In this document: one piece after another, positions 20,401 through 41,914 of the stretch | Position numbering within the stretch: the first letter of the stretch is position 1 | Layout of the letters: each line of letters opens with the position of its first letter | Assembly (NCBI GenBank): GCA_964455555.1 | Contig: CAYVXV010000001.1 | Span: forward strand, 149,096-213,095 | Direction: 5' to 3' | From: an uncultured Pseudomonadales bacterium | GTDB lineage: Bacteria > Patescibacteriota > Microgenomatia > UBA1400 > PJMF01 | DNA: 64,000 nt | Notes under the pieces: generated by a model | Databases searched by the model: none | What the model saw: the letters and a program-made list of their open reading frames with translations, nothing else | Told to the model about the DNA's origin: nothing | Translations under genes and position numbers: made by a program

Positions 20401-21540
20401 GGGGCTGTCAGATTTAAGGACATCTTTAAGCTCTTGGCGGAAATTGTAGCCGGTGGTAAAGCCTGAAAGTTCTTCAAGGGCAATGGTATGGTTTTTAAGC
20501 GAATCAACCAATTGAGTAGCGTGCTGAGCAAAAGCCTCGCGCTCTTCTTCTGGCAGACTGAGAGTGTAGTCTTTGTAAAAGTTCTCGAGCGCCGCCACAA
20601 ACTGGGGTGAGCGGGAAATTTTTAGGTAAAGCTCATCGAGGATTTCCAACCGGCGGCGTGGATTAGCAAAAAGCAGGCCAATTTCCGCCTTATCCTTGCT
20701 GAGCATGATTTCCATGACTTCATTGAGCAGCAGATTTTTAAGCTCGGGGTTTGCCTCCAGATAAGCATAACTAATGTCCTTGGAGACAAAAAGCTCGTGC
20801 AAAGCCCGGTTGTAAATCCATGTTGCTTCATACTGCATTTTTTCCAGATCATCTCTGGTGGCAGTAGGTTCGACCTCTTCTTCCTGAGGGGGTAGTTGGT
20901 CAGCCCCTCCGGTCTCCGGTTCCTCTGGAGTTGTTGGAGCGGCTGAAACACCAGTGGGCGCTGGTGGTTCGTTAATTTGTTCATCTAGCTCATCAACCTC
21001 ATCTTCGAGTAGGTCCTGATTGATTTCCTCGGCAGCCTCTGAAAACTCCACTATTGTTGCCCGGGCTACAGCTTGCAGTAGTTTAAGAATTTTATCTCTA
21101 TGGCTATGAGCAATAGTTTCTGATACTAATTTTTCATCATCCCGAGAACCCGCGATTTCTATCAGTAATCGCTTCTGCAGGTCGGAAGACCTGAGAAAAC
21201 TATAAGCATTCAGGCTGGCCTGAGTTTCAGCCGTACCCCTGTGTAACAAAATAGCGGCAGCATCAGAGAGCAGCAGAATAGCGTCGGTATAAAATAGGTA
21301 ATTTTTGCGGTCCTTAGGATCAATTAGGGCTTTATCAGCATCAAATAGTGAAGAGGTGTGAACCTTAAAACTGGGTAGTTGGACCGGTTGCTGATCGAGT
21401 AGTTCGCCGTTAGGTTTAAAGGCGCGGCTGAGGTCAATAACTAAATCACGGACCTTTTCAAGTTTTTCGCTTGGGTCAATAAACTTCACTTGCTGAAGCT
21501 CAGTCAAAGGGACTGATTGATTTTGCTCGTCAGGCGCCAT
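17404..21540 (-). CDS. giant membrane protein: cytoplasmic alpha-helical/coiled-coil N-terminal half, glycine-zipper membrane segment, extracellular M23 (LytM) peptidase domain plus phosphodiester-glycosidase (NAGPA/DUF2233)-like domain
   Basis: M23 signature 'GTHVIVDTGSY...GNSSGNHLHFETVGIDV' (HxxxD and HLHFE); C-terminal 'FIFLDSGGSASF' NAGPA-like motif; Gly-rich 'GGLVGGIGGGIAGFLIGGPVGAVVGAGLGAAVGANAG'. The ORF track starts at TTG 21618; ATG (MAPDEQ) at 21540 is preceded by a 'tataat'. Confidence 0.7.
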   Translation of the reverse strand: MAPDEQNQSVPLTELQQVKFIDPSEKLEKVRDLVIDLSRAFKPNGELLDQQPVQLPSFKVHTSSLFDADKALIDPKDRKNYLFYTDAILLLSDAAAILLHRGTAETQASLNAYSFLRSSDLQKRLLIEIAGSRDDEKLVSETIAHSHRDKILKLLQAVARATIVEFSEAAEEINQDLLEDEVDELDEQINEPPAPTGVSAAPTTPEEPETGGADQLPPQEEEVEPTATRDDLEKMQYEATWIYNRALHELFVSKDISYAYLEANPELKNLLLNEVMEIMLSKDKAEIGLLFANPRRRLEILDELYLKISRSPQFVAALENFYKDYTLSLPEEEREAFAQHATQLVDSLKNHTIALEELSGFTTGYNFRQELKDVLKSDSPTIVGLGTREFTQVEGRIQVALKSLLINQGAEFEFVNIDVSSQASLQSLATHPHTAAWLLQHMSDEHLLLMLGIPEEYRLTEDAIRRLRKLLIKYAQLFAVELALEAEKTSLSAGLAPLSGKEADELAAGNHQIFERRLLPSLSSASSSVQEHGAERVARAVTNSVKDQHKRHLIAWNALSPDEKTLIYEYLGHDLDKITDRNMVPTNIHLLNFAELQMRAQEAIQLQAEIDQERLFQLETAHQEAIYIENLRRFYVESFIAQTSLEERERILEQLEYESLAALHQASLMELIQANEAAVSESHGGAPVGAGGDRTYSADDVAGVPAGIPGAQRPPPGGIRGRFASARSRFTDRFSKKVDARGKALSALKKAGGDKLATKALAAAGPWGKAAALLADKKKRKWILGALAVGGAFVVQGLIKMFTAGISGLIGGLVGGIGGGIAGFLIGGPVGAVVGAGLGAAVGANAGAAIGGGGFSLPSFGGSTGTSSYPALGSSSLPPSAQTAGATTGATGTATAGGSYNVAGTAASYLSTLPVGTAAAAGTIAGSILISLITLLIIFAAFLGPLPASYKSSTFDRTLSNFEGCWPTTGVIRAYQNYDPTLCAGCGGPHAVIRGGYGSYPGDGVAIDITTWDNSASDGGANAPVFTPYAGTASFYPDGTGMRSSDGQYKYGTHVIVDTGSYIMIFAHLLDFAPGISMSNITRDLQVQAGELLGRVDSTGNSSGNHLHFETVGIDVLDILPLTAAEKSAIRADESAIYGMSVNSRDCAAAQDDDDAGVSGYVAIGPKTADNFVVSNSAEASSPKYTCDWFRNNPELDVAINANYYNTPTQPIGIGGANPPVYFANANGRDPAYMEQTMRMFTVDNSGNFRIDPVPSAWYNRTDMPFVVGGYQKAVTGVLSDHPDGGGERNRVALGYGNANGECTDFTGEAIIFASIRTGNYSDLADIMQQCGADQFIFLDSGGSASFCSNSLSMPGGRPMPVNIGLKNAFIQTVGTSN

Positions 21541-21719
21541 GCTTTGATTATAGCGCAGGGTGTGTAGAGAATGGGAGGGTGAAGCGGGTATGTAAACCGC
21601 TGCTTTTCCTTTTTTCAACGTGTATGAAATAATAGAGCTATATTTACCTGCGGAAGGTTTTAAGTGTTAGTAGTTGATGCCAGATGTAATCATCAGGCGT
21701 TTTTGATATAATTCAGACA

Positions 21720-24644: not shown

Positions 24645-26405
24645 TTATTCCCGAGCTACTGGTGTTGTGAACTCACCTTTTCTTAAGCGCTCTTCTTCCC
24701 AATCAGCTTTTGCTGCCCTCTGTTCTGCTAATTGCCTCCGGGTTCTCCAATCTTCTGAGGATCGGCCTCTCTCACGCCCAAATAAGCCAGTTCGGTTTGC
24801 AATCCGCTGCAACCTAGCCTCATCTGTAAGTGCTGCTGTTCCACTATCGATTCCACTTTCTATATTTCTAAGCAATCCTGGGGAGGTGCCAATCATCGAC
24901 CCAACTCTCCCAAAAGTAGATGAACCTCTTGCAGTAGCATTTGCCATGTGTCTTCCCGTGCTATGACCGATGTTCATAAGCCTGCTTATATTCCAACGAT
25001 CACCCCTTGTCTCCACAACACCTCTTCCAAGTCCTTCGACCGCACCGGTTGCAGCACCCGCACCAGCACCCAATAATTTAGAGCTGACCGGCGCAGCTTG
25101 CCGCGCTGTCGTTGCTGCAGCCCCAGCCACCATCTCACCAAATCCTCCACTCGCCCCCAGCCTCTTCTTCACATCCTTAACAATTTCGGGCAAGGCCAGC
25201 AAAATAGCCAAGCCCATCAAGGAAGTTATCGCATCGGGCATGCCCCGGCCAACCAAGAAGGGTGGCATAAAGCCGCCATCACTGACGTTAACTTGCTGTG
25301 TAAACAGGTAGAACATTACAGCTACTACCAGAACAACAGGGAAAACTGCCAGGTTAGCAATCAGATTCCTAATCCAAGGACCGAAGGCATCTTTGCCTGG
25401 TATTGCACCGACCACCAACTGGATAGGAGCGGTCACCACCGAAATAACAATGGTGGCGTAAGATTTAAGCAGTTCAAAAAACAGCTTAAAGGCGCCGATT
25501 AGCACCGCTATGGCGATTACCAAACCTACAGTGATGCCGGCTGCCCAGCCAAAGGTGTCGCCGATAAGGCTGTTGTTAGTGCCTAGGATGGAGTTGATCA
25601 TTTTCTCAACAATATTACTGCCGGCCGAGAACCCCTCAACAGCCCCTGACTTCATAAAGACCCACGAAAGCTCAAAAATATTGTAATTGATGATGTCAGG
25701 ATTATCTCTGAAGACAACTCCAAACAAACCAATAATCAGGTACATTGATAAATACATTAGGTCGATCATGAAACCAGCTATAGCGTAGGAAAAAGTCACA
25801 AACAACAAGCTGACAATAATACTGGGAATTGCCTGCTGAGCAGTGATTGCCTGTTGATTGACCTTTTTTCTGAACATGATCAGGAAGCCGATGACAATAA
25901 AAATCACCACAAAGAACATGTAGGCAATATTCCTGAAAGTTTTCCAGAGTTCTAGAATGGGGTTAAGGGCTACAAAACCGAGGCCTTGGGCGTATGCCGG
26001 CTGGGCAATGCCAATCCCGGCAGAATTCAAAACATCTGCCACGTAAACATGAGTGTTGGCCGGAGGAGTAGCGTACATCTGGCCGATTAGGTAGGCTAAT
26101 CCCGGTACGATGCCCTGACGCTGGGCAACTGCGGGACTGCCATCTGGATTTTCATTAATCGTGCCGCCGGAAGACAAGCCATTAATCGGGACAATGTTTT
26201 GAGTTAGCTGAATAGCGGTGTAATTGAGTGTGTAATAAATTAAACACTCCAGGGAAGGATCTTCACAATTTTCGGTTGCCGAGAGGTATTCGTTGATTAA
26301 TTCTTGGTCTCTGGCTGCAGTGTTGTCTTGTGCCTGAGCAGTATTCGAAAGCACGCCAAATAGAATTACCACCACTGCTAATATACTCAGGGCACGTTTC
26401 GCCAT
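24645..26405 (-). CDS. VirB6/TrbL-like polytopic membrane protein with signal peptide and Gly/Ala/Arg-rich C-terminal cytoplasmic tail
   Basis: Signal peptide 'MAKRALSILAVVVILFGVLSNTAQA', at least 6 TM helices in the central 300 aa, hydrophilic tail; architecture typical of VirB6/TrbL. Confidence 0.6.
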   Translation of the reverse strand: MAKRALSILAVVVILFGVLSNTAQAQDNTAARDQELINEYLSATENCEDPSLECLIYYTLNYTAIQLTQNIVPINGLSSGGTINENPDGSPAVAQRQGIVPGLAYLIGQMYATPPANTHVYVADVLNSAGIGIAQPAYAQGLGFVALNPILELWKTFRNIAYMFFVVIFIVIGFLIMFRKKVNQQAITAQQAIPSIIVSLLFVTFSYAIAGFMIDLMYLSMYLIIGLFGVVFRDNPDIINYNIFELSWVFMKSGAVEGFSAGSNIVEKMINSILGTNNSLIGDTFGWAAGITVGLVIAIAVLIGAFKLFFELLKSYATIVISVVTAPIQLVVGAIPGKDAFGPWIRNLIANLAVFPVVLVVAVMFYLFTQQVNVSDGGFMPPFLVGRGMPDAITSLMGLAILLALPEIVKDVKKRLGASGGFGEMVAGAAATTARQAAPVSSKLLGAGAGAATGAVEGLGRGVVETRGDRWNISRLMNIGHSTGRHMANATARGSSTFGRVGSMIGTSPGLLRNIESGIDSGTAALTDEARLQRIANRTGLFGRERGRSSEDWRTRRQLAEQRAAKADWEEERLRKGEFTTPVARE

Positions 26406-27525: not shown

Positions 27526-30500
27526 CTAGGGCACCAGGCCGCAGTAAGAGGCTGCAGACCAGGCGTTCCAGTTGCCCCATCTCGTTCTGATTTCAATCAT
27601 TTTTTCAATATTCTTTAATGGGTCGAGCATGGCTGTTTCGCAGGAGTTGAGCAAAGCTTGGTCAGCAACTTGGCATGGTAGGTTCCAGGCGTTATAACCT
27701 GGTGTTCCGCTCACTCGGCCGCTGGCATCAGCAAGCGCCCCCGGACAATGTGCCATAAGGTTAATCTGGAAAAGGCCAATACTGTAGTCAACCGACTGGC
27801 TTGTTAGGCAGCGCTTGTTGACGGCGTCGCTGCCGCCACGGCTTTCTTTATTGCAGATGCGTGAGGCAATCTCAGCTTCTGCTTGAGGGTTGGAGAATCC
27901 AGCTTGCTCAAAGAAGGGAAGTAGTGTTTCAACACTGCAGGGCCCGGTCGGAATAATGTTGCAGCTGCCGTCTCCTGCGCCGGCACCGCTGCCACTGATT
28001 GAGCCAACTACTTCATTAGTGATTCCGCCGGCACATTTTCCAAGCAGGAACTCCTCAGTAGTCGAGCAGGAACTTAGATAGGCATGAGCTTGGCCGTAAT
28101 ATGTGTTGAGGCCCCGCTGCACGTTCCTGAGCCAATATCCCAGGCTTGCGCCCAGAAAACTGATCCCGCCTCTGCCTTCTTCTGTTGTGCCAATCCTGAA
28201 GTTTTTGGAGCAGTCATATTCCACCACCTCAATGGGCGGGTCGAGCGGAACCGGCTCGCCGCCGATAATTTCATAGTATTTTAGGTATCGGTTTTCTTCG
28301 CAGTTACCGCTAGTCGGGTCTTCCTGATAAGTATGGCTGGCACTGCCGCCGCCAAAATTTGCCTGGAAACCACTGCCGTCAAAGCGGTTTTTAGTGTCTC
28401 TCTCTTCTAGCTTGGCAACCTGCTGTTGGTTGAAGAAGGTGTGTTTCATCACTTCAGTCACTGATTCAAGTTCATAGCCAACCGGGTACACCAGGAAAAA
28501 GTCTACTTTAGCGGTTTGGCCGGCCGCGTTGCTCCATTTGCCCCTGACGACATCAAAGATAGTCTTAAGAGGGTTGTTTACAGTAGTTGCTCTTTGCGGG
28601 TTTTGGTTTCCTAAGAAAATATAATTAAAAACATCGGTACCAAAACCGTATCCCTCCCTATACACCCTTGATGAATCATCTGTGCTTGGGGGAATTATGT
28701 TGGCTGCTTCAAATATTTCCCTAACCGGTTCGCTTCCAAGGTTGTCACAACTGGGGGTGTTGCCATTTATCAAGTCTACAACTGACTTGCCCAGGACATC
28801 CTTGCAGGCTGCAGCACCATTCAAGCCGGCTAATTCTGCCGGGGTATTGCCGTCGCCTGCTAGACAATAAATTGTGCTCCCTGATCCTTGGGTTGAAGCT
28901 CCGGTGGCCTGTTGGCCGATAATAGTCCTCCTGTCCCTGGACTGCTTGTCAAAACCCGGGTTTTCCTCGTCTTCAGAAAGCTTGAATTTTTGCGGAACCA
29001 GAATATTTCTGGTCTGGCTGACTGCGTCAGTGAAGAAAAAATGGCCACTTTCTTCTCCGCCGCCTTTGTTCGTCAGTATATCAGGGATTTTAAAGGCAAC
29101 AATCAAAACTTCATGCTTTGGTTGGGCAGACTGGGAAAAAGAGAAGAAGCTAAAAGCATCGGCAACTGATCTTTGTTCGATTGAGGCAACCATAAAAGCC
29201 AGCCGATAGGAGCGGTTGATGTAGAGAGGAGTGTTTAAAATGCCTTTTTTCAGCTTGTCGTATTGAGGGGACGTATTGCCAAAAAGCCGCTGGCAGCCGG
29301 CCGTTTCTCCGCCGCTGTAGTAATCCGGCATGAAGTCGCTGATGTCATCAAGCAAAGTGTCAACAATATAGTCCGTATTGGGGATTGCCTCAGCTCTGGG
29401 AGCGCATCTGTCCCACGCTCCAAGCCGCTCACACATTTTTTGGGTGTTGGTTAGGATGCGAACAGACTGGATGCAGCGTTGTTCTGCTGCCATGAGCGAA
29501 TTAATTGGCGCAGTATTTACTTCCTGCTCAGGATAGCTTGAGGCATAGTAGTCCTCGAAGCCAAAATACTCTTCAAGGGATGAGGTCAGAAACCTTCTGC
29601 CCTCTGTATCCCGGAAGATAGGCACCCTGCCGCTTGAGGAATCAATGGTGTAATTTGATTCTGTTTCCAGCCGGATTCCCTCATAAAGCTCTAAAAAGCG
29701 GTTTATCAGGCCTTCTGTTTCAATATTAAGTTTGATGTTGGTGGGCTCGGCAGCGCAGTGGGCTTCATATCCTTGAGCTGCTAAATCCCCCCTGGTGGTG
29801 CTTACGCTTTGCTGGTCCGGCCGGCTTAGCGGATGAATGCCCCTGATGGGGTGGAGCAGATAGTATGCCGGGTCCACTAAATATTCAGGATACTTGCTCA
29901 GGTCATAGCCGAACACTCCTGATCCGCCGGCTGATAGGGCGCTGCCTCCTGGGGGCGCCTCGCCGATATAGAAAGGTTTGCCCAACTCCTGACTTTGAGA
30001 TAATGCCAGCATGGCGCTTTGTTTTTCTGATTCAGTGTAATAGTGAGCAGAGGTTACTGTAATAGCACCGATGCTGTTTGTATTTTTAAAATCTCCGGGC
30101 CCAGTGCTGTCGCAGCGGGTGGTGTCTTGACTAGCCATCTGGCCATAGCCGACATTTGAAGTTACGCCCCTTAGTTGGCTGCCGATCACTTGCCCCCAGG
30201 TTTTGTAGGCCGGCATAGCTGCAGCATTGCCTCCGCAGTGCGGTTCATTGGCCAGCTCGTAGCCCCAAAGAGCCGGATGAGACCCCAGCGCCCTGACCTG
30301 GCTGACTAAAGCTTGGTACTCTCCCTGATAACCGCTTTCATACCATTCTATTCCTGCTCCCTGAGGTATACCGCCGCCGCCATTGCTGTAATCACCGATG
30401 GCGATGATCATTTTTACACCAGCTTGCTGGGCTGCATTGAGAGCATTTTGAACACCGGCCGCTCCCTCAATCTTGGCAAAAGCTCGGACAACAGAGACAC

Positions 30501-30879
30501 CGCAGGTGTTTTTTAGCCAGGAAAGATGTTCTGCAGCTGTGCCGTCAGCGAACTCAGCGGCTCCAATATTATTAATGTTGACACCCACAAACCTGTCGGG
30601 ATATTGCTCGGCTTTTTCTCTGAGAGCTAAACAAATATCAATATTTGTATCTCTGTACCAGGAGAACTGATCTACCGCGATCTGACGGCCGTTTTGGTCA
30701 CCGCCATATTGCCAAACAAGGTATCCAGATGCTCCGGCTTGAAAAAAATCTTCAATTTCTTGGGAAAGGATGGCGGCATTGCTTTCTTGAGCGTTGGCTT
30801 TGGAAAGGTTTGCTGTTATCCCTGCCAGAAGAAAAATTGTTGCCGCTAGTGCCAGTAGTTTAAACGGGAGTATGCGCAC
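27526..30879 (-). CDS. giant secreted protein: N-terminal GH5-like (cellulase/mannanase superfamily) domain and C-terminal lytic transglycosylase (SLT, VirB1-like) domain
   Basis: Signal peptide 'MRILPFKLLALAATIFLLAGITANLSKANA'; GH5 catalytic-acid motif 'WGYELANEPH'; C-terminal SLT pattern 'CNKESRGGSDAVN...SIGLFQINLMAH...Y'. Confidence 0.7.
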   Translation of the reverse strand: MRILPFKLLALAATIFLLAGITANLSKANAQESNAAILSQEIEDFFQAGASGYLVWQYGGDQNGRQIAVDQFSWYRDTNIDICLALREKAEQYPDRFVGVNINNIGAAEFADGTAAEHLSWLKNTCGVSVVRAFAKIEGAAGVQNALNAAQQAGVKMIIAIGDYSNGGGGIPQGAGIEWYESGYQGEYQALVSQVRALGSHPALWGYELANEPHCGGNAAAMPAYKTWGQVIGSQLRGVTSNVGYGQMASQDTTRCDSTGPGDFKNTNSIGAITVTSAHYYTESEKQSAMLALSQSQELGKPFYIGEAPPGGSALSAGGSGVFGYDLSKYPEYLVDPAYYLLHPIRGIHPLSRPDQQSVSTTRGDLAAQGYEAHCAAEPTNIKLNIETEGLINRFLELYEGIRLETESNYTIDSSSGRVPIFRDTEGRRFLTSSLEEYFGFEDYYASSYPEQEVNTAPINSLMAAEQRCIQSVRILTNTQKMCERLGAWDRCAPRAEAIPNTDYIVDTLLDDISDFMPDYYSGGETAGCQRLFGNTSPQYDKLKKGILNTPLYINRSYRLAFMVASIEQRSVADAFSFFSFSQSAQPKHEVLIVAFKIPDILTNKGGGEESGHFFFTDAVSQTRNILVPQKFKLSEDEENPGFDKQSRDRRTIIGQQATGASTQGSGSTIYCLAGDGNTPAELAGLNGAAACKDVLGKSVVDLINGNTPSCDNLGSEPVREIFEAANIIPPSTDDSSRVYREGYGFGTDVFNYIFLGNQNPQRATTVNNPLKTIFDVVRGKWSNAAGQTAKVDFFLVYPVGYELESVTEVMKHTFFNQQQVAKLEERDTKNRFDGSGFQANFGGGSASHTYQEDPTSGNCEENRYLKYYEIIGGEPVPLDPPIEVVEYDCSKNFRIGTTEEGRGGISFLGASLGYWLRNVQRGLNTYYGQAHAYLSSCSTTEEFLLGKCAGGITNEVVGSISGSGAGAGDGSCNIIPTGPCSVETLLPFFEQAGFSNPQAEAEIASRICNKESRGGSDAVNKRCLTSQSVDYSIGLFQINLMAHCPGALADASGRVSGTPGYNAWNLPCQVADQALLNSCETAMLDPLKNIEKMIEIRTRWGNWNAWSAASYCGLVP

Positions 30880-30931
30880 GGGTTCATTATATCAGCAGAA
30901 CGAGCGCCAGGGACTTTTCCTTAATTAGTTC

Positions 30932-31363
30932 CTAATATTGAAAATCAGAAGTGGGAATGCCGAATTGGGTAATAATGCTGACGCCGGTAAACTGAGAAAT
31001 TAGATTTAGGATAATAAAGGCGCTTAGAGATACAACCAAACCGATTACCGCATAGGTCATCATGCCTTTGGCACTTTGCACTTGTTGGGTGCTGCCACCT
31101 CCGGAAAGCATGTAGCGGAAGGCTCCGACAATAAACATCACAAAGCCCGCCAGCCCGATAACGGTAATGATTACCGTGAACACATTGGCAATCAGGCACT
31201 CCAATCCTTGGAGGGTGGCTACATCGCCACTGCCGTATTCTGTATCAGCTACGCAGACACCAGACCAAGATGAAGTTTGGGCAGAAACAGGTGCTGCGCC
31301 GGCGAAGGCCCCAACCAGAACAATTAAAAATAAGATTGCAGAGTGTTTAAGGCTTTTTAGCAT
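30932..31363 (-). CDS. T4SS pilin-like (VirB2/TrbC-type) paralogue P1
   Basis: Signal peptide (MLKSLKHSAILFLIVLVGAFAGAAPVSAQ), then C-terminal two-helix module 'VIGLAGFVMFIVGAFRYMLSGGGSTQQVQSAKGMMTYAVIGLVVSLSAFIIL'. Start trimmed from 31447 to the internal ATG to remove overlap with P2. Confidence 0.6.
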   Translation of the reverse strand: MLKSLKHSAILFLIVLVGAFAGAAPVSAQTSSWSGVCVADTEYGSGDVATLQGLECLIANVFTVIITVIGLAGFVMFIVGAFRYMLSGGGSTQQVQSAKGMMTYAVIGLVVSLSAFIILNLISQFTGVSIITQFGIPTSDFQY

Positions 31364-31391
31364 TAATTTAGTATAACAATTTGCGGCAGGA

Positions 31392-31967
31392 TTAGCGATT
31401 ATTAATGTTGGAGCTATTGATAAGCTCTTCCAACGAAGAATAGCCAAGGAAGTTGAGGATGATAATTAGAATAGCATAGCTGGCTGCCAAGATGATTATT
31501 CCCACAACGGCAGCTACGATGGTGCTTTGAGCAGCCTGAGTTTTGCCTTTGTCACCTCCTGAAGTTATCCATCTGAAGGCACCCAAGATTAAGTAGAAAA
31601 AGACGAGTAGGGCGGCAATTACAAAAACGAATTGCAGCAGGCTGTTAAAGAGTTCACTAAAGCTGCGGAAAAAACCTTCCGGCAGGTTGATGTCTACCCG
31701 CTGAGGTGAAACAGGAGCCTCTTCCTCTACAACAATTACTCTGTCGCCCGAATCCGTGACTACCCGAGTGCCGTCCTCCAGAATAATTACTTCTGAATCA
31801 GTCAGTGTAGCTTCATCAATTTCGGTGCTCAAATATAAAACACCGTCTTGGCCGCGGACCAAACGAACTTCGCCATCAGTGGAATCGGCGGATACAGCCT
31901 GGGAAAAGTTGAACGCCATGAAGGAAAATACAATTATTATTAGGATGCGGGATAATAGTTTAATCAT
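31392..31967 (-). CDS. T4SS pilin-like paralogue P2
   Basis: Signal peptide 'MIKLLSRILIIIVFSFMAFNFSQAVSA'; module 'FVFVIAALLVFFYLILGAFRWITSGGDKGKTQAAQSTIVAAVVGIIILAASYAIL...NFLGY'. Confidence 0.65.
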   Translation of the reverse strand: MIKLLSRILIIIVFSFMAFNFSQAVSADSTDGEVRLVRGQDGVLYLSTEIDEATLTDSEVIILEDGTRVVTDSGDRVIVVEEEAPVSPQRVDINLPEGFFRSFSELFNSLLQFVFVIAALLVFFYLILGAFRWITSGGDKGKTQAAQSTIVAAVVGIIILAASYAILIIILNFLGYSSLEELINSSNINNR

Positions 31968-32007
31968 CTATAACAACTATTATAGCGCAAAATCAGGCAA
32001 AAGTCAC

Positions 32008-32040
32008 TAAAAAAGCCCTCGATAAGAGGGCTTTTTTATT
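32008..32040. terminator. bidirectional intrinsic terminator inside the pilin array (between P2 and P3)
   Basis: aaaaaa-gccctc-gataa-gagggc-tttttt at 32009-32037; A-run and T-run on either side. Confidence 0.6.
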
Positions 32041-32059
32041 ATTCAAATGATTTCCCGGT

Positions 32060-32452
32060 TTAAACGCTTTGCAGTAAGCCTTCGAGGCCCTGTTCATAGC
32101 CGAGGAAGTTAAGGACGATCTGTAGAATAGCCCAAGCTGCTGCTAGGACGATGATGCCGACTACAGCGTTGGTGATCATGTTTCTGGCGTTTTCTGTTTT
32201 GCCTTTGTCACCTCCTGAGGTAATCCAAGTGATGGCACCTAGGATCAAGTAGAAGAAGACGAGTAGGGCTGCGATTACAAAAACAAAATTTAGGATGCCA
32301 TTGATTAGGTCACCGATGTTGCCGAAGAAACCGGTTGGAACATCAATGTCGATGTCTCCCTGGGACTGGGCAAATGCGGGTGTAATTGTTGCAACCATTG
32401 CCGAAGCGGTCACGGAAGCGTAGGCGGCATATTGTTTGAGGGATTTTATCAT
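32060..32452 (-). CDS. T4SS pilin-like paralogue P3
   Basis: Signal peptide ending 'TPAFAQS'; module 'FVFVIAALLVFFYLILGAITWITSGGDKGKTENARNMITNAVVGIIVLAAAWAIL...NFLGY', about 85% nt identity to P2 over the module. Confidence 0.65.
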   Translation of the reverse strand: MIKSLKQYAAYASVTASAMVATITPAFAQSQGDIDIDVPTGFFGNIGDLINGILNFVFVIAALLVFFYLILGAITWITSGGDKGKTENARNMITNAVVGIIVLAAAWAILQIVLNFLGYEQGLEGLLQSV

Positions 32453-32608
32453 ATACTCCTTTTCCTAAATTTTTAGATACACATAGCTAAAAAATTATAC
32501 TCATACTTCGAGTGTTGCGTCAAGTTTCGAAAATATCTTATAGTTAACATTATAACTTGGTCAAAATAGGCCGTCAAGTTGCTTGGCCTGGATGTTCTAA
32601 ATTACCAG

Positions 32609-33082
32609 TTAATCAGAGATGGTAATTCCCTCAAGGTTGAGGAAGTTAAAGAGAAGCTGCAGTATGGCGAGGACTGCTGCCAGGACAATAATGCCAATAA
32701 CAGCATTGAGCATTCTGGTACGAGCTTTTTCGAGCTTGCCACTGTCGCCTCCGGCAGTTATCCAGCCAAGTGCTCCCAAAACCAAGTTTAGAAGTACCAG
32801 AAAGGCTGCGATGGCCAGGATAATTTGCAGAATTCTGCTGATGAGCGATCCGAATTCACTACCGGGGTCGTCTTCATCTACACTGACTATTTGAGGCAGT
32901 TCGCTGGCGCCTTCATTGAGAATATCTAATCGAGGTGCGTTTTGAGTGCTACTTCCTCCGCCGCCTCCACCGCCGCCAGCGCCGGCGTCATCGGCTGCCA
33001 TGATGCTTGGGGGTGAAATAAGTAGTAGTCCGGCCAAAAGAAAGGGCAGTGATTTTTTGAGAAGGTTTTTTAATGATGGCAT
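32609..33082 (-). CDS. T4SS pilin-like paralogue P4 (Gly-rich ectodomain)
   Basis: Signal 'MPSLKNLLKKSLPFLLAGLLLISPPSIMAADD', 'GAGGGGGGGGSS' linker, module 'ILAIAAFLVLLNLVLGALGWITAGGDSGKLEKARTRMLNAVIGIIVLAAVLAIL'. Start trimmed from 33187 to the internal ATG. Confidence 0.6.
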   Translation of the reverse strand: MPSLKNLLKKSLPFLLAGLLLISPPSIMAADDAGAGGGGGGGGSSTQNAPRLDILNEGASELPQIVSVDEDDPGSEFGSLISRILQIILAIAAFLVLLNLVLGALGWITAGGDSGKLEKARTRMLNAVIGIIVLAAVLAILQLLFNFLNLEGITISD

Positions 33083-33086
33083 TAGC

Positions 33087-33515
33087 CTAATCTCCTGTAT
33101 TTGCAAATGGCAGTATTGGTGAAAGGATGCTGAATTCATCTCCGAAGAACAACCGGCTGATAAAGGCAATAATGGTAAATGAAGCAACTAGGATAATGAT
33201 GCCTATAATTGCATTAGTGAGGCGGCGCTGGGCTGCCTGCACTTTGCTGGCGTCATCTCCAGAGGTAATCCACTGCACGGCTCCCATGATAAACATCACT
33301 ATTACTACAATGGCACCGATCGTAATAGCGGCATTCCAGACAAGAACGAAGTATGAAACAAATAGCTCGCCAGAACGGGCTTCTTCCAGGCTTTCCTTGC
33401 TGCCAAGTTTTCCGGTCACAGGGTTTTCAATTTGAGCAAAGGCTGTAGATGCCTGAAAAAGTAAGGCAGAAATTGCTGTTAAAATTGAAGAAACTGCCGG
33501 CTTTAGTTTGTTCAT
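33087..33515 (-). CDS. T4SS pilin-like paralogue P5
   Basis: Signal peptide '...QASTAFAQ'; module 'ITIGAIVVIVMFIMGAVQWITSGDDASKVQAAQRRLTNAIIGIIILVASFTII'. Confidence 0.6.
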   Translation of the reverse strand: MNKLKPAVSSILTAISALLFQASTAFAQIENPVTGKLGSKESLEEARSGELFVSYFVLVWNAAITIGAIVVIVMFIMGAVQWITSGDDASKVQAAQRRLTNAIIGIIILVASFTIIAFISRLFFGDEFSILSPILPFANTGD

Positions 33516-33520
33516 GGGCT

Positions 33521-33898
33521 TTACTGTGCTCCCGGAATAATTTGTAAGAGCATCCTGCCTGGTTCGAGTAGGTTCAGGCCGACAATGCTGCCAATTAGGC
33601 CGATGATGGCATAGGCGGCAACCAAGATAATCAGGCCGATAACTGCATGAAGAATTTTTTGCTGGGCACTGGCAACTTTACTGGCGTCCCCGCCGGCGCC
33701 GATAATTTGGAAAACGGCTGTCAAGAAGTAAAAGATAAAAAATAGGCTGGCCAGGATTGTCAAGAAACCAATGACATTTGAGATAATCAACTCTAGATTA
33801 GAGAGCGCTCCTTCCTGGGTAGCGGAATCTTCACTAAAAGCAGGGCTGACAGGCTGAAATTCGCCAAGAGATTTGGCAATCATAACGGGTAGTGACAT
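33521..33898 (-). CDS. T4SS pilin-like paralogue P6
   Basis: Module 'LTILASLFFIFYFLTAVFQIIGAGGDASKVASAQQKILHAVIGLIILVAAYAII'. Confidence 0.55.
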   Translation of the reverse strand: MSLPVMIAKSLGEFQPVSPAFSEDSATQEGALSNLELIISNVIGFLTILASLFFIFYFLTAVFQIIGAGGDASKVASAQQKILHAVIGLIILVAAYAIIGLIGSIVGLNLLEPGRMLLQIIPGAQ

Positions 33899-33968
33899 AG
33901 CCTAAGTATTTTAACCTTTTTTTAATTACTACTCTAGTAGTGTGTCATTTATACCGGGCAAACTCCGT

Positions 33969-34502
33969 TTATTGCTCTAATGCCCCTTTTATTGTTGGCT
34001 CAAGTATAAAAGTTGCATCTCCAAAAAAGATTAAACCAACAATAGCGGCTATTGTATATGCAGAAACAATAACGAGCAGGCCGATTACACTAAAAGTAAG
34101 TTTTTCGCGGACTTGGGTGTTGGCTTGAGTATTTCCCATGCTGGTAATGTAGATGAAGCCGGCAGCCACGAAGTTGAGCATGGCTAGAATACCGCCAACA
34201 ATGGCAACAAGCCTAATAATGATGCTCAGGAAAGCGATAATACCGACACCATCACCAAACCTGGTTCTGATGGCAGCAGGAGGAACGACCGCCCCCACAA
34301 CTTTTGAACCAACGTTGGAGCCACAGGGCATACCTGAATCAGCCACAATCACGTTGCAGCTCGCATCAAGACACCTACAGGTTGAGCCGTTGTCGCACTG
34401 GCCCTCATACTCGCAGACAGCATTGGCCTTTTCCGGAGCAACCGCCATGGATGCTCCAACCAAGAAAACTAAGACAATGAGTGCTGCGGCTATTTTTTTC
34501 AT
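33969..34502 (-). CDS. T4SS pilin-like paralogue P7 (Cys-rich ectodomain)
   Basis: Signal 'MKKIAAALIVLVFLVGASMAVA'; eight Cys in ectodomain; module 'IVGGILAMLNFVAAGFIYITSMGNTQANTQVREKLTFSVIGLLVIVSAYTI...FFGD'. Confidence 0.6.
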   Translation of the reverse strand: MKKIAAALIVLVFLVGASMAVAPEKANAVCEYEGQCDNGSTCRCLDASCNVIVADSGMPCGSNVGSKVVGAVVPPAAIRTRFGDGVGIIAFLSIIIRLVAIVGGILAMLNFVAAGFIYITSMGNTQANTQVREKLTFSVIGLLVIVSAYTIAAIVGLIFFGDATFILEPTIKGALEQ

Positions 34503-34516
34503 GTTTTTGTTTCTTT

Positions 34517-35023
34517 TTATATGGTCGGGTTTAAGATGTAGCTGGCATCACCAAAGAAAACTAGGCCGATGATTCCTCCTAATGTGTAGAACGAAACAAT
34601 TAAAATTAGGCCAACCAAGCTTGATGTCAGCAGATTTCTAACCTTGGTATGGGTGCCGGGATCTCCTGAGCCAGTAATGTAGAAGAAGGCGGCCAATAGT
34701 ACATTAATCACAACCCAAATACCCCCGATTACGGTGGCAATCCCAATCAGCCTTGAGATAAAGAAAATTATTGCTGTTTCGCCTTCTGAGACTCCGGCAG
34801 CTTGGTTATAAACATCTGTGCCCGGAGGAGATTCTATTTGCCCGATACCAAATTCACAGCCCGCATCATTTCGGTCGCAGACATCAGATTGTTCCGGAAT
34901 AACTGTTGGTGCCGGCGATTGAGCAGCGGCCAGGGCAGCCATGTTCAGAAATATGGCAAATACCAGGGTGTAAAATACTATTTTTGTCAGAATCAGGCGG
35001 TTGTTCTTTATAAAAGTCAGCAT
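34517..35023 (-). CDS. T4SS pilin-like paralogue P8
   Basis: Module 'TVIGGIWVVINVLLAAFFYITGSGDPGTHTKVRNLLTSSLVGLILIVSFYTL...FFGD'. Confidence 0.6.
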   Translation of the reverse strand: MLTFIKNNRLILTKIVFYTLVFAIFLNMAALAAAQSPAPTVIPEQSDVCDRNDAGCEFGIGQIESPPGTDVYNQAAGVSEGETAIIFFISRLIGIATVIGGIWVVINVLLAAFFYITGSGDPGTHTKVRNLLTSSLVGLILIVSFYTLGGIIGLVFFGDASYILNPTI

Positions 35024-35025
35024 TT

Positions 35026-35397
35026 TTAGATTGGAATATTTACTCCGGTAATCATTTTTACAATCTGAACAACCCAGTAGGCAGTGAACATAATGATAAA
35101 ACCGATAACCGCTGTGGTAATAATGCTTTTAGCATCTTCCGCACCTTTTTTTCCTCCTGAAATGAATTTAAAACCGGCAAATACGATTAAAAAAAACAGG
35201 ATAATGCCTGCAAGTACAAAAAGGTTGCGGACAATTAGGTTTACAAGAAAAGCTGGATCGGAATAAAGTTGGCTGATTGGGGTATCGTCGTTGAGTCGCA
35301 GGCAGTCTCCTAGAGAAATTCCTGCACCATCAACTCCTCCGCTGCCGGGATCACAGTCAGTCTGAGCGTACGCAGTAGGCACAAGCTTGCTTAGCAT
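35026..35397 (-). CDS. T4SS pilin-like paralogue P9 (first gene of the tandem array)
   Basis: Module 'FVLAGIILFFLIVFAGFKFISGGKKGAEDAKSIITTAVIGFIIMFTAYWVVQIV'. Confidence 0.6.
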   Translation of the reverse strand: MLSKLVPTAYAQTDCDPGSGGVDGAGISLGDCLRLNDDTPISQLYSDPAFLVNLIVRNLFVLAGIILFFLIVFAGFKFISGGKKGAEDAKSIITTAVIGFIIMFTAYWVVQIVKMITGVNIPI

Positions 35398-35469
35398 CTC
35401 AAGTAATATCTTACAGCAACCCGGTGAAAAATGCCAACAATGGGCTTGTTAAGGTATACTATCACTGTT

Positions 35470-36012
35470 ATGAAAAAGCAGACCTCGGATGAAGCCTTAT
35501 TGGAGCAGCTCAGAAAAGGTGAGCCTAGGGCAGTAAATGAGTGGTTCAACCTGTATCATGACCGCCTGCTTGCCTCGGTTATCTTAAGAGTAACCAGTAT
35601 TAAAGATGCTGAAGAAATTGTTCAAGAAACTTTTTTAAACTGTTTAAAGCATTTGCCGCTCTTCCGCGGTGACGCCAGTATATGGACCTGGATGAATACA
35701 ATTGCCAGGCATGAAATAGCTGATTATTTCCGGAAAAAATATGCCCGCAAGGCCATCCAAACCCTTCCATTGCACGAGTGGCTGCTGGCTAAAAATGTCC
35801 ATGATTCTCATGAGGTTGCCGAGCAGGTTTACTTTATTTTAGACAAAATGCGCAAGTCATACCGAGACCTATTGCTGCTTAAGTATGTCGAAGGCAAAAA
35901 AGTGTCGGCAATAGCAGAGGAGCTAGACCGGAGCATTAAATCTATAGAATCTGATTTGTTTAGGGCCAGGGAGGAATTCCGGGTGCTCTGGGCGGCAGAG
36001 TATGGCGTATAA
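35470..36012 (+). CDS. ECF-type RNA polymerase sigma-70 factor
   Basis: Region 2 'EEIVQETFLNCLKHLPLFRGDASIWTWMNTIARHEIADYFRKK' and region 4 'YRDLLLLKYVEGKKVSAIAEELDRSIKSIESDLFRAREEFR'; divergent from pilin P9. Start moved to the ATG at 35470. Confidence 0.8.
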   Translation: MKKQTSDEALLEQLRKGEPRAVNEWFNLYHDRLLASVILRVTSIKDAEEIVQETFLNCLKHLPLFRGDASIWTWMNTIARHEIADYFRKKYARKAIQTLPLHEWLLAKNVHDSHEVAEQVYFILDKMRKSYRDLLLLKYVEGKKVSAIAEELDRSIKSIESDLFRAREEFRVLWAAEYGV

Positions 36013-36049
36013 TTTGCCAGATAGTTTGCCGGCCGGCTATGGCTAACTT

Positions 36050-36244
36050 ATGAGCAACAGCGAACAAACCCAACAATTTTTAGAGCGGCTTCAAAAGGAA
36101 GCTGCTTTGCAATCTAGGCTTCACAGAGAGAGGTTGTTGCCGCAGCGATTGGACAGCCTAACTTCTCTGGTGGGCAATTACCCCTGGCAAGTGATTTTAT
36201 TATTGTCCGGCGTATCAGCATTTCTTCTGGAGATGATGAGATAA
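36050..36244 (+). CDS. small protein with C-terminal TM helix (candidate anti-sigma factor)
   Basis: 64 aa, immediately downstream of the ECF sigma; TM helix 'PWQVILLLSGVSAFLL'. Positional inference only. Confidence 0.3.
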   Translation: MSNSEQTQQFLERLQKEAALQSRLHRERLLPQRLDSLTSLVGNYPWQVILLLSGVSAFLLEMMR

Positions 36245-36246
36245 CA

Positions 36247-36591
36247 ATGCACATTGGTCAACTAATTATTTCAGCTGTTTACTCGCTCTCGCAAATAACC
36301 GGGGGTTTGTTGCTGCATCCTTACCAAACTATGCAGTCTCTAGTTAGGGACAAGGTCTTTGTTTGGATGACCTTGCTGCCAACAGGGGTTCTGGCACTTT
36401 TGACTTTGGCGTGGAAGTTGGCGGTGGTGCCGCTGGTCAGCCTTTTTTTTTCCTGCAACACAACCGGATTTATCGGCTGCCAGTGGCTAACCTTTATTTC
36501 CAACTGGATTACTTTCTTTTGCATTTATTGGCAGGTCCTGTTGTTTTATTTATTAATCCGCTTCTCCAAAATTTATTCATTTAACAATTAG
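36247..36591 (+). CDS. hypothetical polytopic membrane protein
   Basis: Three or four hydrophobic helices; 2-nt spacing to the upstream ORF. Confidence 0.3.
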   Translation: MHIGQLIISAVYSLSQITGGLLLHPYQTMQSLVRDKVFVWMTLLPTGVLALLTLAWKLAVVPLVSLFFSCNTTGFIGCQWLTFISNWITFFCIYWQVLLFYLLIRFSKIYSFNN

Positions 36592-36605
36592 TTCAGGATG
36601 TTTAT

Positions 36606-37238: not shown

Positions 37239-37307
37239 AAAATAGTTAGTTTGCATGATTTTAGCCGTTTTTGCGACTAATATACTGCTTTAGTATCGGA
37301 CAAACCT

Positions 37308-39294: not shown

Positions 39295-39301
39295 GGAAAT
39301 T

Positions 39302-40012: not shown

Positions 40013-40055
40013 GCTGAAATCAATCGGCGCGAAATCAGAGCGCCAGCGAATAAAG

Positions 40056-40589
40056 TTATAAAATCGCAACGCCAAAGATAGTTTCCAGAATCTGGAATAG
40101 CCAATAGGCAACAAATAAGAGAATGAACCCAACCACAGCTGCGCCGATGCGCTGTTTGCCGGCATCGACTGTTTTCTTGGTAGCAGAACCGGCTAAAACC
40201 TCAAACCCCCCCCAAATCAGCATGACAAATAGGACCAAGCCTGCCATTGGCAGCAAGAATGCCAGCAGCCTGGTAACAATGGCTCCCGGAGTAACCAGGT
40301 TCTCGCTTAAGCCGGATTCACCATAGCGTTTGAGCGGATTGAGTTCGTCAAAAGTTTCGTTGGACGGTCCTGCAACAACGTCAAAGCTGTCGTCAGTAGT
40401 GCCTGTCTGAGCTGTAGTTGGGCAACAGACATAGCCGCTGACGCATTGGTCGCTTCTGACTTTTCTATAATCAGCACCGCAGTTTAAGTTTTCTGGGGCA
40501 CAAATTCCTCCGGCACACATTTGTGCTGAAGCTTCCTTTGGCAGCATGACGAGGAGTGCAAATGATAAAAGTAGTACGATTTTTTTCAT
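40056..40589 (-). CDS. T4SS pilin-like paralogue P10 (Cys-rich ectodomain), unlinked from the main array
   Basis: Signal 'MKKIVLLLSFALLVMLPKEASAQ'; module 'LLPMAGLVLFVMLIWGGFEVLAGSATKKTVDAGKQRIGAAVVGFILLFVAYWLF'. Confidence 0.6.
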   Translation of the reverse strand: MKKIVLLLSFALLVMLPKEASAQMCAGGICAPENLNCGADYRKVRSDQCVSGYVCCPTTAQTGTTDDSFDVVAGPSNETFDELNPLKRYGESGLSENLVTPGAIVTRLLAFLLPMAGLVLFVMLIWGGFEVLAGSATKKTVDAGKQRIGAAVVGFILLFVAYWLFQILETIFGVAIL

Positions 40590-40591: not shown

Positions 40592-41914
40592 TTAGCCTCC
40601 AAATCCTGGTATTTGCAAGACTGAGTAACCGATAAATTGCAGAATGGCTACAGAGAAGATTATAAAGATAAGCCCGGTAACTGCTGCTACCAGCATTTCT
40701 TTGGCTTCACCAGTGCGTTTGGGATCGCCTGCTGAGACACTGATGATAAACCCGGAGCCAAGGATCATGAGTAGAGAAATGCCTCCGCCCATGGTAAGTC
40801 CAAGTCTGATGAATGTGCCGATAATGTCTTTGGGCGAGCGGTTTATGCAGCCGACTGCTGTCCAAACACCAGCCCGGCCTTCTTCACCTTCATCGCCGCC
40901 TTCGCCTCCGCTTGCACATTTCAAGCAATTGTCTTTGGCCTGAGAACCTTCCGGTAATTGATCACAAAGATAATAAGGCGTGCTCCCGCCGTCCTCAGTC
41001 GAGGTAGTAATCGAGGTAGATGAGGTGTTGCATTGGTCAGCACTGCAGCCGTCTTTTGTAGAAACACCTTTTAACTCGCAGCCGGCAAAGTCTGTTGTCC
41101 GCGGTAATGATTGCGAATTATAAGCCATCATTTTGAAATCATATTTAGCATCCCGGGCCGCACTATTTAAAGTGATGGTTGTATTTACTACACCATTAAC
41201 TGAGTCAGCATGAACGTTGGCCTCACCTCCTAGCCCCGCTTGCTTTATGTCGATTTCTACCCGGCCGTTATAGGGGTTGCCTGCATGCTTCAGACCGCTA
41301 ACTGATAAAGTAATGGGATTGCTACTTCCATGTGCCAGACAGGAATTTCCGGTGTAGTAGCAGGTATTGCCGCTGTTTTGTTGTGAGATTGTCCAGTTGC
41401 ATGGTCCTGAATATTGATCGCTTGAAGTGTTGTATGTGCCGAGTTCACACTCATTTGCAAATGAGCCCAACAGTGCTTTTCGTACTAAGACTACATAATT
41501 TTTATTGTCACCGCTGGTTGGAACAAGCGCACCCATGTCTTTGATGGTGAAGGTGGCTACATAGTTTGTTACCTTAACACAAGCTGAGTTGTTGGGTTGG
41601 CACAACTCGCTAACATTGCCGCCGGCGTCGAGCCTAAAACTGGGGCTTTTGACTAAGCTAGTGGAATATGCATCTAGAACTTTGGCAGCAAAGACCTCAA
41701 GGTGGTAGTCTCGGCTGGTGTCGAATCCTTGGCTCATGTTTATAGTAACCACATGATTGGCACCGGCCGTATAGGCTGGCAAGGTTATTCCTGTTCCGGT
41801 TACATTTGAATATGCCGGACAAGCGCTGGCTGCAAAGACAGGTGTGGGGGAAAGCACTAAACCACTAATAGCAACAAAGGTGACTACCAGCAGAATCAAG
41901 AGCGCTTTTTTCAT
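40592..41914 (-). CDS. large pilin-like protein P11: ~330-aa Cys-rich secreted ectodomain fused to the C-terminal VirB2-like two-helix module
   Basis: Signal 'MKKALLILLVVTFVAISGLVLSPTPVFAAS'; C-terminus 'GGGISLLMILGSGFIISVSAGDPKRTGEAKEMLVAAVTGLIFIIFSVAILQFIGY'; ~20 Cys in ectodomain; Gly/Glu-rich linker. Confidence 0.55.
   Translation of the reverse strand: MKKALLILLVVTFVAISGLVLSPTPVFAASACPAYSNVTGTGITLPAYTAGANHVVTINMSQGFDTSRDYHLEVFAAKVLDAYSTSLVKSPSFRLDAGGNVSELCQPNNSACVKVTNYVATFTIKDMGALVPTSGDNKNYVVLVRKALLGSFANECELGTYNTSSDQYSGPCNWTISQQNSGNTCYYTGNSCLAHGSSNPITLSVSGLKHAGNPYNGRVEIDIKQAGLGGEANVHADSVNGVVNTTITLNSAARDAKYDFKMMAYNSQSLPRTTDFAGCELKGVSTKDGCSADQCNTSSTSITTSTEDGGSTPYYLCDQLPEGSQAKDNCLKCASGGEGGDEGEEGRAGVWTAVGCINRSPKDIIGTFIRLGLTMGGGISLLMILGSGFIISVSAGDPKRTGEAKEMLVAAVTGLIFIIFSVAILQFIGYSVLQIPGFGG

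Follow-up and report, generated by a model that had tools for sequence, protein, structure and literature searches.

The 64,000-nucleotide stretch of DNA analysed here (the window; positions 149,096 to 213,095 of contig CAYVXV010000001.1) contains nine consecutive open reading frames (ORFs) on its minus strand, at positions 30932-35397, which are numbered P9 to P1 in the direction of transcription. Each gene of this array encodes a subunit of PF18895, a pilin family of type IV secretion systems (T4SSs), with a leader, an extracytoplasmic N-terminal segment and a helix-loop-helix hairpin, and the locus is a chromosomal, origin-proximal, monoderm-type (MPF-FATA-like) T4SS of Patescibacteria. We are highly confident of both family and locus. 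Sequence comparison with relatives indicates that the pilins are about eight ancient orthologous classes in a fixed order and not interchangeable variants. The explanation favoured here, which is considered reasonably probable, is that they would form one multi-subunit T4SS fibre or conduit of VirB2-fold proteins, with P3 as the major subunit and the others as non-redundant accessory subunits.

Identification of the pilin-module genes

The TTG starts given for P1 and P4 in the ORF list overlap the upstream gene, and the ATG codons at 31363 (P1) and 33082 (P4) are likelier. With these starts the array proteins are 123-191 amino acids (aa) long. In order of transcription the genes, with their scores against PF18895 and, for some, against the module hidden Markov model (HMM) described below, are:

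35026..35397, minus strand: P9, pilin-module gene, 123 aa, first gene of the array (PF18895 23.3 bits; module HMM E 5e-25)
34517..35023, minus strand: P8, pilin-module gene, 168 aa, P7/P8 subfamily (PF18895 21.6 bits; module HMM E 1e-26)
33969..34502, minus strand: P7, pilin-module gene, 177 aa, Cys-rich ectodomain (PF18895 23 bits; module HMM E 7e-27)
33521..33898, minus strand: P6, pilin-module gene, 125 aa, short non-hydrophobic leader (PF18895 25.4 bits)
33087..33515, minus strand: P5, pilin-module gene, 142 aa (PF18895 30.3 bits, above the cut-off)
32609..33082, minus strand: P4, pilin-module gene, 157 aa, P2/P3/P4 subfamily, Gly-rich acidic ectodomain (PF18895 32.2 bits)
32060..32452, minus strand: P3, pilin-module gene, 130 aa, proposed major subunit (PF18895 40.4 bits; PF04956 21.2 bits)
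31392..31967, minus strand: P2, pilin-module gene, 191 aa, 74-aa acidic ectodomain (PF18895 26.3 bits)
30932..31363, minus strand: P1, pilin-module gene, 143 aa, last gene of the array (PF18895 37 bits)

All nine proteins share a C-terminal module of about 80 aa, consisting of a hydrophobic helix, a polar loop and a second hydrophobic helix and usually ending in NFLG or FFGD. Two hydropathy segments of transmembrane (TM) length are present in nine of the nine. The loop sequence WITSGGDxGK is a consensus only; the sole column invariant across the nine is one Gly in helix 2, and every copy has at least one Lys or Arg in the short loop. Module identity averages 30%, the closest pairs being P2/P3 (69%), P3/P4 (56%) and P7/P8 (46%), and full-length identity within the array averages about 30%, with a maximum of 58%. 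The original prediction, made from the sequence of the array, held that the N-terminal ectodomains are unrelated, and between paralogs this is so, with about 21% identity in forced alignment. It also put the DNA identity of the P2 and P3 modules at about 85%; local alignment of 31551-31640 with 32204-32300 gave 85.2% over 81 nucleotides (nt), and in a fixed +656 register the identity is 79% over 137 nt.

An HMM built from the nine modules was run on all six-frame stop-to-stop ORFs of at least 40 aa in the window. It matched the nine array genes (E 1e-25 to 1e-34) and two further genes only, on the same strand and about 4.7 kb upstream of the array. No other membrane protein of the window was matched, though YidC, MFS, FtsX and Lgt proteins are present. 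The two additional genes are:

40056..40589, minus strand: P10, pilin-module gene, 177 aa, Cys-rich ectodomain, sister to the P9 class (module HMM E 6.6e-15; PF18895 24.4 bits)
40592..41914, minus strand: P11, pilin-module gene, 440 aa (module HMM E 6e-8; PF18895 17.9 bits)

The ORFs, the module HMM and the PF18895 matches therefore all bear out nine consecutive minus-strand paralogs with a common two-helix C-terminal module, as had been predicted, but the nine are not the whole set, two more module-bearing genes being present at 40056-41914. In the AlphaFold2 (AF2) model of P11 (mean pLDDT 85) a signal peptide is followed by two beta-sandwich domains, then by a Cys-rich linker and, at the C-terminus, by a pilin hairpin with predicted helices at 361-393 and 398-432. 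The ectodomain is 330 aa long, its fold matches are generic immunoglobulin (Ig)/FN3 tandems, and eight Cys residues are invariant among 47 P11 homologs. P10 and P11 are contiguous with the rest of the array in six of the related loci described below (L007, L015, L036, L037, L052 and L053), and a 9 + 2 layout like that of the window is seen in several others, including L001, L002, L006, L028 and L055. Because of this contiguity in some relatives, the window arrangement is read as one array of 11 genes interrupted by 4.6 kb of opposite-strand genes.

Relationship to VirB2-type pilins

The gathering threshold of PF18895 (T4SS_pilin) is 26.6 bits. The family matches all nine array proteins; P1, P3, P4 and P5 are above the threshold, P2 is 0.3 bits below it, and P6-P9 are also below (21.6-25.4 bits, E 1.5e-5 to 2.3e-4), PF18895 being the top match in each of these four. 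A database search gave 683 homologs at E <= 1e-5 and, among the matches listed, 120 of 120 were annotated as PF18895. P3 gave the best scores of the set against both PF18895 and the TrbC/VirB2 family PF04956, although its PF04956 score (E 3.5e-4) is below the gathering score of that family (27.9 bits).

The wider relationship was examined with a P3-centred alignment of 70 sequences, comprising P3 orthologs and the window paralogs P1-P10. At E < 0.01, PF18895 was matched by 70 of 70, PF04956 by 49 of 70 (best E 2.8e-8) and CagC by 5 of 70. When the P3-family profile was compared by hhalign with Agrobacterium VirB2 (the query sequence being 100% identical to annotated virB2 genes) the probability was 63% (E 7e-5), with the leader, the AxA↓Q site and both helices collinear. 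A link to VirB2/TrbC is thus supported, mostly by HMM matches below threshold. The AF2 model of P3 is a confidently predicted helical hairpin (block-mean pLDDT 92-98 for residues 51-120) whose helices span 46-77 and 83-116, as expected if the genes are VirB2-like. The original description of the genes as VirB2-like pilins is therefore upheld by PF18895 in all nine, by PF04956 and CagC in the P3 family, and by this model. Fold searches were non-discriminating: Foldseek with the P3 model against the PDB gave nothing at E <= 0.001 (best E 3.0). A tblastn search with P3 against 72,556 plasmids gave no match, so it has no close relatives on known plasmids.

The similarity of the array proteins to one another could in principle be a matter of chance or composition among unrelated small membrane proteins. 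A single invariant column across the nine agrees with this, as does a sequence-based profile search of the PDB, in which the matches were to generic TM proteins and none was to a pilin. Nevertheless, multiple alignment and profile comparison rule out TM composition as the explanation: the module HMM selects only 11 genes among the six-frame ORFs of the window, all 11 match PF18895, and the database homologs and the collinear gene order conserved in 80 genomes (see below) refute this explanation too. Its probability is taken to be negligible.

A second identity, that of type IV pilins or type II secretion system (T2SS) pseudopilins, was also ruled out. No Pfam family of this type was among the matches of the pilin-module proteins; the module is C-terminal and two-helical, and direct reading of the 11 N-termini found no class III signal peptide or prepilin-peptidase site (G↓F/M-x-x-x-E) in any of them.

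A signal peptide had been predicted for every copy. A canonical leader with an AxA site is present in six of the nine (P1, P2, P4, P5, P7 and P8), the leader of P3 is weak, Ala/Thr-rich and ends in AFA↓Q, and the leaders of P6 (21 aa, 33836-33898) and P9 (11 aa, 35365-35397) lack a hydrophobic core, so for these two the prediction fails. Coreless leaders of about 7-21 aa with an A-Q-type end are kept in most P6 and P9 orthologs, full signal peptides being found in only a few distant ones, and an 'LIAQ' leader is conserved in the P6 class. By analogy with TraA and VirB2 and from the positive-inside rule, the loop of the hairpin would lie on the cytoplasmic or lumen side and both termini outside.

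Conservation of classes and gene order

Related loci were collected, with one genome per species, by a search for the P3/P2/P4/P5 pattern, and the best 80 of 233 confirmed loci (L001-L080) were analysed. As these were picked by P3 similarity they are a sample of the relatives of the window, not of all Patescibacteria. They come from Pacebacteria, Woesebacteria, Microgenomates and 'Patescibacteria group' metagenome-assembled genomes (NCBI phylum Minisyncoccota). The names of the closest relatives suggest that the window belongs to the class Microgenomatia, where PMC12102498 finds arrays commonest. Many records with a Patescibacteria T4SS/pilin locus of this type are titled 'uncultured Pseudomonadales bacterium' or 'Gammaproteobacteria', which look like placeholder or wrong names.

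The largest array found per locus with the module HMM was of 7 genes in 28 loci, 8 in 13, 9 in 12, 10 in 4, 11 in 3 and 12 in 1; in the other 19 it was of 2-6 genes, mostly on short or truncated contigs. An array of nine is therefore not unusual, contrary to what had been supposed, and 441 arrays of 2-11 genes have been reported elsewhere (PMC12102498).

Every pilin in the 80 loci was assigned to the window paralog that scored best. This gave a near-universal order, (P11 P10) P9 P8/P7 P6 P5, then about 1-4 copies of P4/P3/P2 type, then P1. The median margin between best and second-best score was 85 bits for P1, 55 for P5, 45 for P6, 68 for P9, 67 for P10 and 95 for P11, while P7 and P8 make up one subfamily and P2, P3 and P4 one fuzzy subfamily. 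Only 17 of 622 pilins had their nearest relative in the same genome, and 16 of those 17 belong to the P2 and P3 classes (169 members). Recent duplication or concerted evolution is thus rejected for most classes, whose nearest neighbours are in other genomes, and is kept only for the P2/P3 subfamily.

The ectodomains, too, have class-specific features. The P1 class carries the motif W.G.VCV...DVATIQGLEC with two Cys, the P5 class a conserved mature N-terminus, AQIxNPVxGxLG, and the P9 class the motif AYAQ..C.PG..LGDCL with a conserved Cys pair in the ectodomain; the Cys pattern of P7 recurs in the closer orthologs aligned. Identity of orthologs to the window protein is nearly equal in ectodomain and module for P1 (57 and 58%) and P5 (47 and 48%), and is lower in the ectodomain for P2, P3, P4, P7, P10 and P11 (28-32 against 47-60%).

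Both ectodomains and modules are under purifying selection. In eight close pairs of genomes the ratio of nonsynonymous to synonymous substitution rates (dN/dS, Nei-Gojobori) ranged from 0.00 to 0.77 in the N-terminal parts and from 0.00 to 0.48 in the modules; no computable value exceeded 1.

The original prediction preferred a hypervariable repertoire, in which one pilin would exist in alternative versions, the paralogs, differentially expressed or recombined for evasion or for matching to host strains. The lack of relationship between ectodomains of different paralogs fits such a scheme, as do the P2/P3 DNA identity (about 80-85% over about 80-140 nt), the variable copy number and same-genome neighbours within the P2/P3/P4 subfamily, and the multi-copy VirB2 of Bartonella and Anaplasma, cited as a precedent (PMC12102498). 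So does the P11 ectodomain, which is highly divergent between L001 and L002. Against it, gene order and class identity hold across the 80 species-level genomes, each class keeps its own ectodomain motif, and dN/dS is below 1 wherever it was computable. Nor was machinery for variation found. All copies are complete ORFs with their own start codon, and no silent, promoterless or 5'-truncated cassette was found; there are no long identical tracts in the array, the longest exact P2/P3 run being 23 nt; no tandem repeats were found in 30000-42500; and no recombinase or invertase was found among the window ORFs scanned against Pfam, where the only reverse-transcriptase-like match was RVT_3 on an RNase H protein. 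A programmed pilin-variation system is rejected on these grounds.

Data from a cultured relative point the same way, in that several array members are individually essential in Southlakia epibionticum. The supplement to Wang et al. 2023 (PMC10633639) gives each of the PF18895 genes SEML1_0017-0019 the scores GD/ES/ES, meaning that they were essential at the later time points; a truncated row immediately before SEML1_0017, apparently that of SEML1_0016, has the same scores. These scores support non-redundant subunits. A repertoire of alternative pilins is considered very unlikely, and it is the other option raised in the original prediction, a heteropolymeric fibre, that the evidence favours.

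Among the pilins, P11 may be the only one that changes truly fast and faces the host. L001 and L002 are otherwise close (about 93% identity in P1, P5, P6 and P9), with dN raised also in P10 (0.34) and in the first P3-type copy (0.30). Some host-range variation at the P11 position is possible, because the P11 ectodomain diverges sharply between these two close loci.

Expression signals and a proposed multi-subunit assembly

Matches to the consensus of transcription signals were found on both sides of P3:

32494..32577, minus strand: two sigma-70-like promoter matches upstream of P3, each 11/12
32008..32038, minus strand: intrinsic-terminator-like hairpin directly after P3, with a stem of 13 pairs and a T-run
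32007-31979, minus strand: promoter-like site of P2 itself, 10/12 match

A similar pattern is seen in the relatives. There the gaps from P9 to P5 are 4-21 nt, while P3-class genes lie between gaps of 75-92 nt, and terminator-like hairpins inside the arrays follow 48 of 128 P3-class genes, with at most two per class elsewhere. Because of its short ectodomain (predicted to be 16 aa in the mature protein), its promoter-like sites, its terminator and the best VirB2/TrbC scores, the P3 class is the best candidate for an abundant major subunit, a role suggested by consensus matches.

A possible scheme is as follows. The P3 class, with its short ectodomain, its own promoter-like sites and terminator and its frequent duplication, would provide the abundant major subunit. 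The tightly packed P9-to-P5 block, together with P1, P10 and P11, would supply accessory ('minor') subunits in low copy. With VirB4 driving the process, all the subunits would assemble together into a single pilus-like fibre or conduit that crosses the cell wall; the wall would be opened by the M23 and SLT_3 hydrolases of the locus, and P11, with its Ig-like ectodomain, is the candidate for a distal element in contact with the host. Taken on its own, co-assembly is given slightly better than an even chance. A more specific version, in which a heteropolymeric VirB2-fold pilus or conduit in a monoderm comprises about eight ancient classes, with P3 as major subunit, fast-diverging P11 as a tip determining host specificity and expression wired to an extracytoplasmic function (ECF) sigma factor, is tentative and, as a whole, somewhat doubtful. 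We know of no multi-pilin T4SS fibre of such a kind, and the literature was not searched for one.

Several observations weigh against a multi-subunit fibre with P3 as its major component. Promoters and terminators were called from matches to the consensus only. The gathering score of PF04956 is reached by no protein of the window, and when the P3-family profile was compared by hhalign with a small VirB2/TrbC alignment, of six sequences from five annotated alphaproteobacterial plasmids, the probability was only 33% (E 4.7e-4). Averaged dN/dS values are compatible with positive selection at a few sites, and the P11 ectodomains of L001 and L002 are almost unrelated, with a dN of 0.81 and saturated dS, when the N-terminal dN of neighbouring genes is 0.04-0.09. 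The transposon-sequencing essentiality of single Southlakia pilins may stem from polar effects. Finally, no pilus has been observed in any Patescibacteria T4SS, and reviews call its function unknown.

It might instead be that there is no fibre and that the hairpins are membrane-embedded parts of a channel (a short stalk or an inner-membrane platform) or cargo inserted in the host membrane as a nutrient conduit. Monoderm (MPF-FATA) T4SSs are generally described as having no pilus, and reviews speculate on an uptake conduit. P6 and P9 classes without a signal peptide are also in keeping with this, as are the sub-threshold matches of P3, P4, P5, P1, P6 and P8 to the pilin-like protein Mbov_0395 of a Mycoplasma integrative and conjugative element (ICE). 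No fibre is known to us for the Mycoplasma ICE systems, and the literature was not checked on this point. However, the 11 distinct subunits, whose extracytoplasmic domains reach 330 aa and include Ig-like domains and disulfide-type Cys pairs, suit exposed surface structures better than a buried stalk, and the family has kinship with the pilus-forming VirB2, TrbC and CagC. An arrangement without a fibre is thus regarded as unlikely. As to length, the present results fit a short stalk and a long fibre alike.

Comparison with known systems

Arrays are normal for the lineage, and features of this kind are already published by Wang et al. 2023, by Quinonero-Coronel et al. 2025 and in a 2025 review. 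Southlakia epibionticum has six pilins, SEML1_0014-0019 (PMC10633639); 441 VirB2 arrays of 2-11 genes were found in 383 assemblies, most abundantly in Microgenomatia and Saccharimonadia, with a mean identity of 25% and a maximum of 54% (PMC12102498); and the review stresses six 'structurally conserved, but sequence-divergent' pilins. In PMC12102498 an array is at least two PF18895/PF04956 genes in tandem, or one non-pilin gene apart, in a Patescibacteria genome; the window has nine in tandem and its array is one of this class. It resembles those in the two papers (PMC12102498, PMC10633639) in the PF18895 family, in the tandem arrangement beside a monoderm-type T4SS near dnaA, and in low identity within the array, the mean of about 30% and maximum of 58% in the window standing against the published 25% and 54%. 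It differs in being split into 9 + 2 by the 4.6-kb opposite-strand block, and from Southlakia in having more than its six pilins. The additions made here are a class structure that is collinear between genomes and P3-specific signals of expression; collinear class orthology, purifying selection and a P3-specific terminator are not mentioned in the passages of PMC12102498 that were searched.

In those passages the authors suggest that array diversity may help adaptation to different host strains, and the virB2 copies of Anaplasma and Bartonella are thought to aid immune evasion (antigenic variation) or contact with varied host surfaces (PMC12102498). The Anaplasma and Bartonella genes are likewise tandemly amplified, divergent and attached to a T4SS in a host-dependent bacterium. 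The window classes, by contrast, show deep conservation of their order as well as purifying selection, and this points to specialisation rather than variation.

The VirB2/TrbC/TraA pilins of diderms (Agrobacterium T-pilus, F-pilus) are similarly small, with a leader ending AxA↓Q, two helices, a short loop and VirB4/VirB3 neighbours, and the window proteins show sub-threshold PF04956 matches and collinear hhalign alignment to VirB2. Diderm conjugative systems normally have a single pilin gene and a VirB5 tip protein, whereas the window has 11 paralogs with added ectodomains, in a monoderm.

Type IV pili and T2SSs (GspG with GspH-K) offer a functional analogy only. In these sets, too, the paralogs have a hydrophobic assembly module in common and diverge in their exposed parts, one abundant subunit is accompanied by several of low copy with separate non-redundant roles, and the order of the operon is kept from species to species. 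Neither the fold nor the biogenesis is related, the window module being a hairpin and not a single N-terminal helix, and the motor is different: VirB4 in the window locus, a PilB/GspE ATPase in those systems.

Another parallel is the Mycoplasma ICE family Mbov_0395 / MMCAP2_0565 (NF045849), for which the best E value among the six matching window proteins is 1.3e-7. The 586-aa protein of the locus matches the neighbouring TM protein Mbov_0396 and the 497-aa protein matches the N-terminal part of the Mbov_0397 VirB4 model. Both systems are of monoderm MPF-FATA type, and no window match reaches the NCBIfam cut-off. The family definition refers to mobile ICEs, whereas the window locus is chromosomal, by dnaA/dnaN, with 11 pilin-module genes. 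These sub-threshold matches suggest that monoderm MPF-FATA systems already have a pilin-like gene, which bears on the published question whether VirB2 was co-opted by Patescibacteria from diderm systems.

Patescibacteria account for a large share of bacterial diversity and apparently depend on host cells. In the only species tested their T4SS is essential, pilin cluster included, and its function is called completely unknown. The present results shift the working hypothesis from a variant repertoire for different hosts to one multi-subunit machine, and single out P3 as candidate major subunit and P11 as candidate for host contact. If this is correct, a heteropolymeric pilus or conduit could be the structure by which these ultrasmall epibionts tap their hosts.

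The T4SS locus and neighbouring genes

Attachment of the array to a T4SS, as originally proposed, is confirmed by genes for VirB4, PrgI/VirB3 and SLT_3 and M23 proteins on the same strand, and the layout agrees with that published for Patescibacteria T4SSs (PMC12102498). The genes downstream of the array and the VirD4-like candidate are:

27526..30879, minus strand: 1117-aa secreted protein directly downstream of P1; SLT_3 lysozyme-like domain at its C-terminus (VirB1-like role), weak GH5-like region
24645..26405, minus strand: 586-aa polytopic protein, VirB6-like candidate (weak NCBIfam Mbov_0396 / MMCAP2_0566 / pLS20_p028 conjugation TM matches)
17404..21618, minus strand: 1404-aa protein with an M23 peptidase domain (Pfam), cell-wall hydrolase of the locus
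15029..16240, minus strand: PrgI (VirB3-like) family protein (PF12666, 30.2 bits)
13473..14966, minus strand: 497-aa candidate TrsD/TraD-like conjugative transfer protein (NCBIfam TrsD E 1.4e-4, below cut-off)
11211..13337, minus strand: VirB4-type ATPase (PF19044, PF12846, PF03135)
9484-11052: dnaA, adjoining the VirB4 gene
8093-9202: dnaN, beside dnaA
58630..60969, plus strand: candidate VirD4-like ATPase (type IV coupling protein; PF10412 TrwB_AAD_bind; NCBIfam TraD / CD1115 VirD4-like, below cut-offs)

The SLT_3 protein is syntenic downstream of the array in 37 of the 80 loci and the VirB6-like candidate in 33. Beyond dnaA and dnaN, downstream of the T4SS genes, lie rnpA and yidC. The VirD4-like candidate is 23 kb from the array, apart from the other T4SS genes. 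No relaxase was found among the window ORFs scanned, and no VirB5 among the locus proteins scanned, although no search was aimed at VirB5. Scans of the whole window for tRNAs and Rfam families found no tRNA gene and no family at gathering score, despite the dnaA/dnaN/rnpA/yidC origin region, and no riboswitch or other RNA element was detected near the array by the Rfam scan.

Upstream of P9, and between the two parts of the array, are genes on the opposite strand:

35431..36012, plus strand: ECF-type sigma factor, head-to-head with P9, the two start codons lying 33 nt apart
36050-36244 and 36247-36591, plus strand: conserved small membrane ORFs after the sigma gene
36606-40012, plus strand: NUDIX (possibly IDI-like), GHMP kinase, diphosphomevalonate-decarboxylase-like (MVD) and undecaprenyl pyrophosphate (UPP) synthase genes

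An ortholog of the sigma factor is present in 56 of the 80 loci and is head-to-head with the P9 ortholog in the 55 measured, with a median start-to-start gap of about 17 nt. With start codons so close, each promoter would have to sit inside the coding region of the other gene, or P9 may be nearly leaderless. The 36050-36244 product, which has a C-terminal TM segment, is possibly an anti-sigma factor. The genes at 36606-40012 look like a mevalonate/isoprenoid pathway in a reduced genome, and the block is absent from this position in some relatives.

On the other side of P11, and divergent from it, a plus-strand gene at 42059-43798 encodes a SpoIID-domain protein with a coiled-coil N-terminus and is syntenic in 18 loci. 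Other genes of the 42059-49956 region (at 47047-49956 on the plus strand and 46552-46935 on the minus strand) encode a Fic-domain protein, an ATP-dependent DNA ligase and a DUF5654 protein (PF18898).

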